From a virus (lineage: Duplodnaviria; Heunggongvirae; Uroviricota; Caudoviricetes), in IMG/VR virus record IMGVR_UViG_2728369593_000012, positions 1 through 6,255 of that record: a stretch of 6,255 nt of DNA; one strand, written 5' to 3'. The first letter of the stretch is position 1. Each line of letters starts with the position of its first letter. This document shows positions 427-3,790 of the stretch, piece by piece. The position numbers and the translations under genes were made by a program. A model generated the notes under the pieces. It was not told where the DNA came from. It ran no database searches and was given only the letters and a program-made list of their open reading frames with translations.

Positions 427-648
427 TTAACCTCCAGATTTCCGCGCATCTAAAGGCGCATTCTCATTTGGTGTGAACTGAATAGTTGTGCTGATATTGA
501 TTAATGCCCCGACACACAAGACTACGCACTCAGAGCAGATAGCAACTTCATCTTTTCCGCCTTTGGCGATGATTTTTTTTGCCTGCAGCTCGTTTGCGCC
601 ACAAAACGAGCATGTGAAATAACGGTTCATTTGCGCTCTCTTACACAT
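427..648 (-). CDS. ClpX-type C4 zinc-finger (ClpX N-terminal zinc-binding domain-like) small protein
   Basis: Translation contains FTCSFCG...KKIIAKG...VAICSECVVLC, which aligns by eye with the E. coli ClpX N-terminus (LLYCSFCGK...KLIAG...VYICDECVDLC): two CxxC pairs with conserved spacing. An alternative start at the second Met (ATG ending at 630, MNRYFTCSFCG) is preceded by a weak GAGAG SD-like motif; the ATG at 648 has none. First gene downstream of the putative leftward promoter. Confidence 0.6.
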   Translation of the reverse strand: MCKRAQMNRYFTCSFCGANELQAKKIIAKGGKDEVAICSECVVLCVGALINISTTIQFTPNENAPLDARKSGG

Positions 649-801
649 AGTATTTAACGAATCATCCGGTCATTCATACGCCACCGGCGGCTACTTCGTG
701 GGCGTCCTGCCTGTTCGTTTTTGACATTTACTGACTGCTTACGACACATGCACCGTGTTGCAACCAGATTTTGTTGTAATCCTGTAGTTGGTCTGGAACA
801 A

Positions 802-859
802 AAGATAAAATTAAATTGCGAGATATGCAAGTGATATTTGCGGGATATGCAAATTGATA
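802..859 (-). promoter_or_regulatory. OL-like operator pair with putative leftward pL-type promoter
   Basis: Two tandem 15-bp sites, TTGCGAGATATGCAA (816-830) and TTGCGGGATATGCAA (838-852), inside a ~21-bp direct repeat; same TTGC-N7-GCAA dyad as the cI/cro intergenic site at 1619-1633. On the minus strand a -35 TTGCAT (830-825), 17-bp spacer and -10 TATCTT (807-802) can be drawn; the promoter assignment is tentative. Confidence 0.4.
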
Positions 860-905: not shown

Positions 906-1598
906 TTAATTATGTCTCTTAAGGGTTTGCGACTGACTGATTAAGACCTTTCCAAAGACCATGAATCGGTGTTCGTTTTCGCTAGTAATTCCCCATTCAC
1001 GGTAAATCTGGTTATCAGAAATCACCAGCAGTTTGTCAGGAATCATTTGAAGTCTTTTAACGTATATTTTGTCATCAAAACCAAAGACATATATACCATC
1101 ACCATCAAACTGATTGATGCTGACATCAACGAAGATGAGATCTCCTGGCTCAATGGTTGGACACATACTGTCCCCACGAACGTTGATAACTTTGATGTGA
1201 TTGGCTGGTCGTCCGCCGAACATTGATACAGCATTATCAGTTCTGTATTCGATGGCATGAATCACATCAATGACATCACCGCCCTGGATAAGGCCATTTC
1301 CCGCACTGGCACTGATATCCAGCATTTCAATACGGAACACATCCTTCACCTGCGCAACATCCTCATCATTACTGTTTTTATATACAGTATTACTTTTGTG
1401 GGCAGAGGTAAAGAGATCAGCAATATCAACACCTAAGCTCTTGGCAATATTACTCAGTGTTTGTTCGGTAAATTGTTTTTGCTTACCCGTTTCTAAGCGC
1501 GAGATGTTCGCCGCATCTACTCCTATTGCTTCAGCGAGATCGGCGATTTTCATGTTCTTCGCTTGGCGAAGTTGTCTGACTCGGTTTCCTATGTTCAT
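906..1598 (-). CDS. cI: CI-type phage repressor (N-terminal XRE-family HTH, C-terminal S24 LexA-like autopeptidase domain)
   Basis: 230 aa. N-terminus has an HTH pattern (KIADLAEAIGVDAANISRLETG). C-terminus has the S24 signature GDSM (Ser144) and KRL (Lys181), and a candidate Ala-Gly cleavage site at SASA-GNG (A99-G100). Divergent from a cro-like gene, typical of lambdoid immunity regions. Confidence 0.9.
   Translation of the reverse strand: MNIGNRVRQLRQAKNMKIADLAEAIGVDAANISRLETGKQKQFTEQTLSNIAKSLGVDIADLFTSAHKSNTVYKNSNDEDVAQVKDVFRIEMLDISASAGNGLIQGGDVIDVIHAIEYRTDNAVSMFGGRPANHIKVINVRGDSMCPTIEPGDLIFVDVSINQFDGDGIYVFGFDDKIYVKRLQMIPDKLLVISDNQIYREWGITSENEHRFMVFGKVLISQSQTLKRHN
1370..1389. promoter_or_regulatory. 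Near-consensus SOS (LexA) box inside the cI coding sequence
   Basis: TACTGTTTTTATATACAGTA: perfect CTGT-N8-ACAG core with TA flanks and an AT-only spacer, matching the E. coli LexA box consensus TACTG(TA)5CAGTA at all conserved positions. Lies in codons 70-77 (linker) of cI. Only such site in the window. Confidence 0.5.
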
Positions 1599-2679: not shown

Positions 2680-2859
2680 TTGCGACAAGTTAACCGCTGG
2701 TTCAAAGATCACTACGGAGTGCCCGTCAGAGTCATTCGTTGGGAGCCGGAAACACAACGTGTTATCTACCTCCGCGAAGGCTATGAGCATGAGTGCTTCA
2801 GCCCGCTCGAACAGTTTCGTCGTAAATTCAGGGAAATAGAGGTCGGTCATGAGCACTAA
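2680..2859 (+). CDS. Hypothetical small protein (59 aa), TTG start, not in the supplied ORF track
   Basis: Strong SD AAGGAG (2666-2671) 8 nt upstream of TTG at 2680. Translation (M)[58 protein letters not shown]; stop TAA at 2857-2859, overlapping the start of the replication gene by 11 nt. Same frame as 2497..2658, separated by a single TAA. Confidence 0.35.
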
Positions 2860-3790
2860 ATTAACCGGCTATGTATGGGATGGTTGCGCTGCATCAGGCA
2901 TGAAATTATCCAGCGTGGCAATTATGGCCCGCCTGGCTGATTTCAGTAATGACGAAGGTGTGTGCTGGCCATCAATTGAAACCATTGCCCGCCAGATTGG
3001 CGCGGGAATGAGTACCGTCAGAACGGCTATCGCACGGCTGGAAGCAGAAGGCTGGTTAACGCGTAAGGCGCGTCGCCAGGGTAACCGCAATGCGTCGAAT
3101 GTTTATCAGCTTAACGTTGCGAAGCTTCAGGCAGCGGCATTTTCTCAACTGTCAGATTCTGACCCGTCAAAATCTGACGCATCAAAATCTGACCCGTCAA
3201 AATTTGATGCGTCGAAATCTGGCAAAAAAGCGGGTTTTCACCCGTCAGAATCTGGCGGGGATCCGTCAGTAAAATCAAAACATGATCCGTCAGATAAAAA
3301 AACTTCTCGTCCGGACGCTTCGCAACCGGACACGCAGACGGCTGAACAGGAGTTTTTAACTCGCGATCCTGATGCGGTTGTATTCAGCCCTAAAAAGCGC
3401 CAGTGGGGAACGCAGGATGATTTGACCTGCGCACAGTGGCTCTGGAAAAAAATCATCGCCCTGTACGAGCAGGCCGCCGAATGTGACGGCGAGGTGGTTC
3501 GTCCCAAAGAACCGAACTGGACAGCCTGGGCAAACGAAATTCGCCTGATGTGTGTGCAGGATGGTCGTACTCATAAACAAATCTGCGAGATGTACAGCCG
3601 CGTCAGTCGCGATCCGTTCTGGTGCCGTAACGTGCTCAGCCCGTCGAAGCTGCGGGAAAAATGGGATGAGCTTTCCCTGCGCTTATCGCCGTCCGTCAGC
3701 ACGTACACCGAAAAACGCGAAGACCCGTACTTCAAAGCCAGTTACGACAACGTGGACTACAGCCAGATCCCGGCAGGATTCAGGGGGTGA
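2849..3790 (+). CDS. Phage replication initiation protein (N-terminal winged-helix DNA-binding domain; O-like / DnaT-like C-terminal region)
   Basis: 313 aa; ATG with GAGG 5 nt upstream. N-terminal pattern ARLADFSNDEGVCWPSIETIARQIGAGMSTVRTAIARLEAEGWL is typical of phage replication-initiator HTH domains. Low-complexity linker encoded by the iteron array. Occupies the O-gene position after cII. The C-terminal homology is recalled, not searched. Confidence 0.65.
   Translation: MSTKLTGYVWDGCAASGMKLSSVAIMARLADFSNDEGVCWPSIETIARQIGAGMSTVRTAIARLEAEGWLTRKARRQGNRNASNVYQLNVAKLQAAAFSQLSDSDPSKSDASKSDPSKFDASKSGKKAGFHPSESGGDPSVKSKHDPSDKKTSRPDASQPDTQTAEQEFLTRDPDAVVFSPKKRQWGTQDDLTCAQWLWKKIIALYEQAAECDGEVVRPKEPNWTAWANEIRLMCVQDGRTHKQICEMYSRVSRDPFWCRNVLSPSKLREKWDELSLRLSPSVSTYTEKREDPYFKASYDNVDYSQIPAGFRG
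3151..3300. repeat. Iteron array (putative phage replication origin) inside the replication initiator gene
   Basis: Four tandem 15-bp units at 3158-3217 (TCTGACCCGTCAAAA / TCTGACGCATCAAAA / TCTGACCCGTCAAAA / TTTGATGCGTCGAAA), plus further CCGTCAG copies at 3241-3249, 3262-3269 and 3286-3293 in both orientations. Internal dyads GTCAGAtTCTGAC (3151-3163) and CGTCAaaatcTGACG. Followed by an A-rich stretch (3271-3303). Mirrors the lambda ori-within-O arrangement. Confidence 0.5.

Follow-up and report, generated by a model that had tools for sequence, protein, structure and literature searches.

The 6,255-nt stretch of DNA analysed here, referred to throughout as the window, shares 97% identity with Shigella phage SfII over 96% of its length and comprises the early and immunity functions of a lambdoid prophage. 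The features on which the analysis draws are listed below by their positions in the window.

427-630, minus strand: coding sequence, read from the conserved start, of a zinc-binding domain (ZBD) protein (67 aa, 7.1 kDa, pI 7.6), from Pfam, family alignment, AF2/Foldseek and pN/pS
573-580, minus strand: A8 homopolymer in the ZBD gene (codons AKKI), a +1/−1 frameshift hot-spot
631-648, minus strand: six extra in-frame codons (MCKRAQ), probably 5′ UTR; not conserved, included in the 73-aa PGAP form
651-720, minus strand: structured leader RNA of 70 nt directly upstream of the ZBD gene, from covariation and a covariance model
719-714 with 661-656, minus strand: helix P1 of the leader RNA
687-683 with 670-666, minus strand: helix P2 of the leader RNA
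802-830, minus strand: inferred PL promoter (−35 TTGCAT at 830-825, 17-nt spacer, −10 TATCTT at 807-802), read from the sequence
816-830: proximal OL operator, TTGCGAGATATGCAA, from a pattern search
838-852: OL operator, TTGCGGGATATGCAA, from a pattern search
887-870, minus strand: intrinsic terminator after cI, from a terminator scan; also an annotated terminator in SfII
906-1598, minus strand: cI-type repressor with HTH and S24 peptidase domains (Pfam HTH_3 and Peptidase_S24; cI in the SfII annotation), with its stop at 906
1696-1956: cro-like gene
1949-2500: CP76-type cII
2849-3790: O-like replication gene

Read leftward from cI, these features succeed one another in the order terminator, two operators, inferred weak promoter, leader and ZBD gene, and the cI terminator (870-887) keeps the repressor transcript apart from the early-left transcript. 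A pattern search with TTGCGNGATANGCAA returned three exact matches; the 15-bp operator TTGCGnGATAnGCAA is exact in both OL copies, and the same site occurs at OR (1619-1633). The −35 element of the inferred PL overlaps the proximal operator, and a consensus promoter scan found no PL, the inferred −35/−10 pair being under its threshold. This layout supports the ZBD gene as the first of the leftward operon, consistently with the first-pass annotation, which had placed a phage gene directly downstream of OL-like operators: those at 838-852 and 816-830 are followed by the leader and then by the gene. The order of repressor, ~170-330 nt and ZBD gene was the same in every related locus examined, and the gene holds the same position in Salmonella phages 118970_sal3 and F1055, in Salmonella prophages and in one metagenome contig. 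Another minus-strand ORF (654-875) overlaps the operators and the leader; we do not regard it as coding, because its frame is closed by a stop codon in the relatives from Salmonella and neither Pfam nor PHROG gave a match.

On the far side of the ZBD gene lies a minus-strand ORF (162-338) of PHROG 15476, a family with no function assigned. Its SfII counterpart starts at ATG 367, which is out of frame in the window, where an A/T run is one base shorter; the only start left is a GTG at 338, yielding 58 aa vs 68 in SfII (the site of the difference being 339-367). A plus-strand gene (9-200, 63 aa, PHROG 2605, the equivalent of SfII_36) converges on the leftward operon and overlaps this ORF by 39 nt; the relatives, too, have a small convergent ORF, which there runs into the 3′ end of the ZBD gene. 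At the opposite end, genes for PerC-like, Dam, LexA-like, RusA and KilA-N proteins lie 3′ of the O-like replication gene. The latter contains tandem iteron-like repeats (GACCCGTCAAAATCTGAC / GCATCAAAATCTGAC, at 3150-3224), which probably mark the replication origin, as in lambda. A match of these repeats to an Rfam miRNA was spurious and sub-threshold; the two Rfam matches in the window were set aside as chance, being far under the gathering scores.

The minus-strand ORF at 427-648 translates as MCKRAQMNRYFTCSFCGANELQAKKIIAKGGKDEVAICSECVVLCVGALINISTTIQFTPNENAPLDARKSGG. As the first-pass annotation had read it, the protein is a ClpX-type zinc finger and nothing more of ClpX. It matches the Pfam family zf-C4_ClpX (PF06689) at 41.3 bits, where the gathering cut-off is 27 (E=1.4e-10), over protein residues 12-46 and profile positions 2-34 of 39. 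An AAA+ module is absent, so that the protein is not a ClpX: the NCBIfam ClpX equivalogs TIGR00382 and PRK05342 scored only 23.2 and 25.7 bits vs cut-offs of 370.75 and 359, and the equivalog match was confined to profile positions 5-48. The C4 finger proposed earlier, CSFCG...CSEC, in which 18 residues separate the two halves, has the arrangement CxxC, ~18-21 residues, CxxC, and its four ligands (C7, C10, C32 and C35 in the numbering of the 67-aa form) are invariant across the family and align with C14, C17, C36 and C39 of ClpX. A fifth cysteine, equivalent to ClpX C43, is also conserved with E. coli ClpX. F9, the counterpart of F16 in the ClpX docking pocket, is invariant in the phage family; the position equivalent to I46 (A42) is occupied by A, T, V, S or I across the family, and the adjacent L43 position stays hydrophobic. 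Between the two knuckles, the loop has 3 residues more than its ClpX counterpart, and identity to the E. coli ClpX ZBD is ~37-43%.

The coordinates of the gene need a correction at one end. The minus-strand ORF at 427-648 stands as first described, and its start is likely to be at 630 rather than 648. All homologues start at the equivalent of the second ATG (base 630, MNRYFTCSFCG...; family pattern MN..Y[YF]TCSFCG), which is preceded by an SD-like AAGAGAG (636-642) in the window and by AGGAG in the Salmonella and metagenomic relatives. PGAP annotates 73 aa from the first ATG (648), a reading that we rejected. Since the homologues begin at the second ATG and the six upstream codons are not conserved, the true start is probably M7 (base 630) and the protein 67 aa long. 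In this form the ZBD spans residues 1 to ~48, and the tail (49-67) is predicted to be disordered.

Structure prediction assigns the protein to the same fold. An AF2 model obtained with nine family sequences as input (pLDDT 71.9, with residues 57-67 below 50) shows two short strands (residues 20-23 and 30-32) followed by a helix (33-51). When compared with the PDB by Foldseek, its top six matches were all ClpX, namely five ZBD crystal chains and one integrative full-length CLPX model, and all others had E>1. The best of them, 2DS5, 2DS6 and 2DS8, were recovered with a probability of 1.00, TM of 0.79-0.83 (target-normalised) and rmsd of 1.4-1.7 Å, which upholds the suggested resemblance to the ClpX ZBD fold; 2DS8 is a ZBD-XB complex. 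Sequence relatives in the PDB were likewise ClpX chains only. The protein also matched two PHROG families, both without an assigned function, and none of the PADLOC defence and counter-defence families at E<=0.1. By profile, ligands and fold, we consider it practically certain that this is a free ClpX-type ZBD of the zf-C4_ClpX family.

We then considered whether the gene is maintained by selection. pN/pS was computed over the first 45 codons for family pairs, and the near-identical pair L109/L119 was excluded from the ranges of site differences. Between family members, 42-95% of synonymous sites differ vs 8-23% of non-synonymous sites, with pN/pS of 0.13-0.33 in all pairs and pS up to 0.95. 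Such ratios at near-saturated synonymous sites indicate a real protein under purifying selection. The gene, which already bears the RefSeq name 'ClpX C4-type zinc finger protein', occurs in 98 of the 5426 complete E. coli genomes, with >=99% identity in 95 of 100 records; relatives with 57-76% identity are carried by Salmonella phages 118970_sal3 and F1055 and by a Salmonella prophage that is very common. All members share the conserved ZBD of ~48 aa, followed by unrelated C-terminal tails of 10-75 aa. In two 121-aa members (L109/L119), the C-terminal ~70 aa (…KKLFKELLQLVLNLPDFGSKLAAVDID…) are also found without the ZBD, as the first gene after the leader RNA, in contig L060, which indicates that the ZBD has been joined, as a module, to a second small protein.

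A profile of the family searched against 1.8 billion representatives matched 442 clusters at E<=1e-3, of which only 14 were close (E<=1e-10); the best 150 of the 442 were mostly short stand-alone or tandem ZBD proteins of diverse origin. The top match in this representative database is a protein of 2505 aa with 36 ZBD-like repeats (P0017), and many other matches are proteins of 100-300 aa in which 2-4 ZBDs follow one another in tandem. ZBD-only proteins occur in other phages as well, for example Pseudomonas phage PP9W2, and a profile search of genome contigs for the ZBD family returned only two distant matches, from Clostridia.

The gene behaves as an accessory cassette. SfII, 97% identical around it, has the same flanks yet lacks the gene, the segment equivalent to window positions ~421-655 being swapped for ~45 unrelated bases. 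The identical E. coli gene lies downstream of at least four unrelated cI-type repressors. Furthermore, alleles of 221 and 223 nt, left unannotated, are present in several complete E. coli genomes, and one IMG/VR contig carries a truncated allele (MNRYFTCSFCGANELQAKKSSPK...); these A8 variants could represent slippage-prone inactivation, phase variation or sequencing error. The variety of repressors, the absence from SfII and the frameshifted alleles together show that the gene is accessory and not tied to one type of immunity or replication. Since SfII has the same cI, cro, cII and O without it, and frameshifted alleles are frequent, the gene is dispensable and any benefit it brings is conditional.

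The ~62 nt preceding the gene are virtually identical between phages whose ZBD genes differ at most synonymous sites, and SfII retains the leader RNA without the ZBD gene. Covariation analysis of 43 distinct sequences revealed two helices, P1 and P2, in which 88% of cells are paired and both sides change in 11 of 12 pairs. The covariation score was 0.688 vs 0.18 in shuffles (0 of 500 reached 0.688), and slid partners scored <=0.14. Compensatory variants were found in P2 (CCGGU/ACCGG, CCUGG/CCAGG, CCGAC/GUCGG, CCACC/GGUGG and CUACC/GGUAG) as well as in P1 (CGAA/UUCG, CCACC/GGUGG, UCAUC/GAUGA and CAAA/UUUG), and the G-U pairs agree with the leftward orientation of the transcript. The junction, AGGCAGGACGCCCACGAAGUAGC, is near-invariant, including in Aeromonas and Providencia phages outside the 17-mer selection. 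A covariance model matched 651-720 with 91 bits. The leader does not qualify as a generic stable fold, with unremarkable MFE z-scores, and its structure is visible through covariation only.

None of the 4227 models of Rfam 15 covers 651-720 at E<=1, and the literature searched held no match to the leader sequence. The nearest known parallel are the put RNAs of HK022, which are likewise cis-encoded structured RNAs near the start of the early transcript, in phages apparently devoid of an N gene. They differ in that the leader RNA is present in one copy per phage, vs putL plus putR, and in that its P1 encloses the junction and P2. We rejected the leader as a put RNA, the covariance model having no match in the HK022 immunity region. 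The logic of put also predicts an intrinsic terminator right after the leader, and no perfect-stem terminator was found within 150 nt downstream in 84 distinct contexts. The leader RNA may serve as an RNAP-directed antiterminator, stabilise the 5′ end or control translation, and the extreme conservation of its sequence from host to host suggests a target in the host that is itself conserved. It may prove more novel than the ZBD gene itself.

BLASTN located the leader in 53 phage records, including ST64B, SfV, SfIV, ZF40, mEp237, SPN3UB, Yersinia, Klebsiella and Aeromonas phages and a T5-like Providencia phage, and a 17-mer taken from it occurs in more than 120 IMG/VR contigs. The host range of its carriers covers Escherichia, Salmonella, Shigella, Klebsiella, Pectobacterium, Yersinia, Aeromonas and Providencia, and lambdoid phages have it in the interval that separates the repressor gene from the early-left genes. 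Among the 80 IMG/VR loci of the ZBD family, 79 have the leader RNA 20-30 nt upstream of the gene; the 80th has the gene at its very start. The reverse is not true. In a survey of the slot equivalent to window positions 427-650 (loci L009-L128), the ZBD gene comes next in only ~12% of the leader-bearing loci (~16/129). The commonest first ORF is a 40-aa peptide of the MRMIDFARKP/MIDFARKP type (~25/129 loci), the rest being many unrelated small ORFs. The leader RNA therefore marks a hypervariable first-gene slot, in which the ZBD gene is one cassette, and its presence before unrelated genes and in phages lacking the ZBD means that it does not need the ZBD protein.

What such a protein might do can be approached from its host counterpart. 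The ZBD of ClpX is required for degradation of lambda O, and its F16/I46 pocket docks lambda O, trigger factor, SspB and RssB (PMC7804408). Deletion of the ZBD abolishes RssB-mediated sigmaS turnover and spares that of ssrA substrates (PMC7226468). The free ClpX ZBD, supplied in trans at 5-20 uM, inhibits RssB-mediated sigmaS turnover by 0.6 uM ClpXP in vitro, an effect that needed roughly 10-30-fold molar excess (PMC7226468).

On these grounds, we propose the following scheme. The ZBD gene is an optional cassette occupying the first early-left (PL) slot of temperate phages of the SfII/mEp460/ST64B type. Synthesis of its product would begin within minutes of infection or induction, the gene staying silent in the lysogen, a timing expected from the location of the gene in the first PL slot, 20-30 nt behind the leader RNA. 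It would mimic the host ClpX ZBD and titrate partners that dock there, whether the adaptors RssB and SspB or substrates such as O-type and MuA-type proteins or antitoxins; alternatively, it would form mixed dimers with the ZBDs of ClpX. The predicted outcome is a selective damping of ZBD-dependent ClpXP degradation early in lytic growth, with the ZBD-independent, ssrA-type degradation left intact. The analysis shows the identity, fold, selection, position and cassette behaviour of the gene, and published work shows inhibition in trans by the free host domain; we infer that the phage copy binds the partners of the host domain, and infer which substrate counts for the phage. A decoy of this kind is plausible because the free ClpX ZBD inhibits RssB-mediated sigmaS degradation in vitro, and the equivalent of F16, the four ligands and the fifth cysteine, all conserved in the alignment, count in its favour. 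Against it count the variable I46 equivalent, the ~37-43% identity and the loop longer by 3 residues, as well as the excess of free ZBD required in vitro, the absence of the gene from SfII, its frequent frameshifted alleles and the wholly different tails among members, which a pure decoy does not need. On balance, we tentatively favour the view that competition for ZBD-docking partners, or mixed dimers with ClpX, damps ZBD-dependent ClpXP activity, and put its chances a little under even. The specific suggestion in the first-pass annotation that the phage replication initiator is thereby stabilised found no support, since SfII, which lacks the ZBD gene, has the same O-like gene.

The strongest competitor to the decoy is a zinc ribbon whose role has nothing to do with ClpX, acting on another host protein or on nucleic acid as a small early regulator, so that the likeness to ClpX would reflect ancestry only. 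Such a protein could be likened to the Ogr/Delta-, Com- and DksA-like zinc-finger proteins of phages, and the fold is indeed widely reused outside ClpX, as the predominance of stand-alone and tandem ZBDs among the best 150 of the 442 clusters (E<=1e-3) attests; one docking-pocket position is not conserved, and a conserved RNA always adjoins the gene. That RNA, however, also precedes unrelated genes and is present in phages that lack the ZBD; the protein, at pI 7.6, is close to neutral and has no basic patch typical of nucleic-acid binders, and its nearest relatives in both sequence and structure are ClpX ZBDs and nothing else. We regard a ClpX-unrelated role as unlikely. Less probable still is a tether or adaptor, in which the ZBD would dock on ClpX, through ZBD-ZBD contacts or on the AAA+ ring, and the variable tail would bring a specific host or phage protein to ClpXP as cargo, so that degradation would be promoted and not prevented. 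The shared N-terminal domain of ~48 aa with unrelated tails of 10-75 aa would suit this design, as would the modular assembly suggested by the C-terminal module of the 121-aa members standing alone behind the leader RNA (L060 vs L109), but the version in the window has a tail of only ~19 residues, predicted to be disordered (pLDDT <50 over residues 57-67), and none of the tails contains a recognisable domain. Finally, a decaying, functionless remnant of a captured clpX 5′ end, for which the absence of the gene from the otherwise 97%-identical SfII and the frameshifted alleles at the A8 tract in several genomes might speak, is highly improbable given the purifying selection across diverged members (pN/pS 0.13-0.33, pS up to 0.95), the start, SD and position conserved in Escherichia and Salmonella phages, and the >=99% identity in 95 of 100 E. 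coli records.

Returning to the decoy, the phage protein can be set against what is known of its model. It shares with the host ClpX ZBD the C4 motif, the fifth cysteine, the pocket phenylalanine, a beta-hairpin with a C-terminal helix (TM ~0.8) and a domain size of ~45 aa. It differs in lacking linker and AAA+ module, in its longer loop (+3 residues), in its modest identity (~37-43%) and in the unconserved I46 equivalent; moreover, the phage gene is repressor-controlled, whereas ClpX is a housekeeping protein. Like the phage protein, the purified free ClpX ZBD is an isolated domain, and it blocks RssB-dependent sigmaS degradation by adaptor competition, but it is a laboratory fragment of the host protein used at high excess, whereas the phage version is a diverged natural gene (PMC7226468).

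In the candidate role proposed here, the phage ZBD would join other small proteins, several of them from early or immunity regions, that alter degradation by host AAA+ proteases. Known modulators of host proteases include CIII of lambda (acting on FtsH), PinA of T4 and Gp4.5 of T7 (both acting on Lon). RexB of lambda was reported to block the ClpP-dependent degradation of lambda O and of antitoxins, and IraD, IraM and IraP are anti-adaptors of RssB. CIII and RexB are encoded in the early-left and immunity regions of lambda. To our knowledge, none of CIII, RexB, PinA, Gp4.5 and the Ira proteins is related in sequence or fold to the phage ZBD, and we know of none among them that copies a domain of the protease itself. 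Our literature searches found no functional study of a phage ZBD-only protein or ClpX mimic. The domain family is known and the gene already carries a domain name in RefSeq; the phage variant itself is real and uncharacterised.

Replication initiators of the lambda type, MuA, RpoS, SOS products and several antitoxins are under the control of ClpXP, whose ZBD is the hub for the docking of adaptors and many substrates. The most far-reaching reading of the locus is a viral docking-domain mimic that, as the first early-left product, would shut the ZBD-dependent branch of ClpXP (RssB/sigmaS, SspB delivery, O-type initiators and ClpXP-labile antitoxins), encoded behind an undescribed, highly conserved structured leader RNA, the marker of a hypervariable first-gene slot shared by many temperate phages of enterobacteria and present even in T5-like phages; taken as a whole, we consider this possible yet somewhat doubtful. 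Testing the decoy hypothesis would cost little, with a protein of only 7 kDa and established ClpXP assays. If true, it would disclose a new viral route to reprogram host proteolysis, by domain mimicry of the protease itself right after derepression, and would provide a ready-made genetic means of telling apart, in vivo, the ClpXP functions that depend on the ZBD and those that do not. The leader RNA, for its part, may govern how the early-left region is transcribed or translated across a large set of temperate phages.
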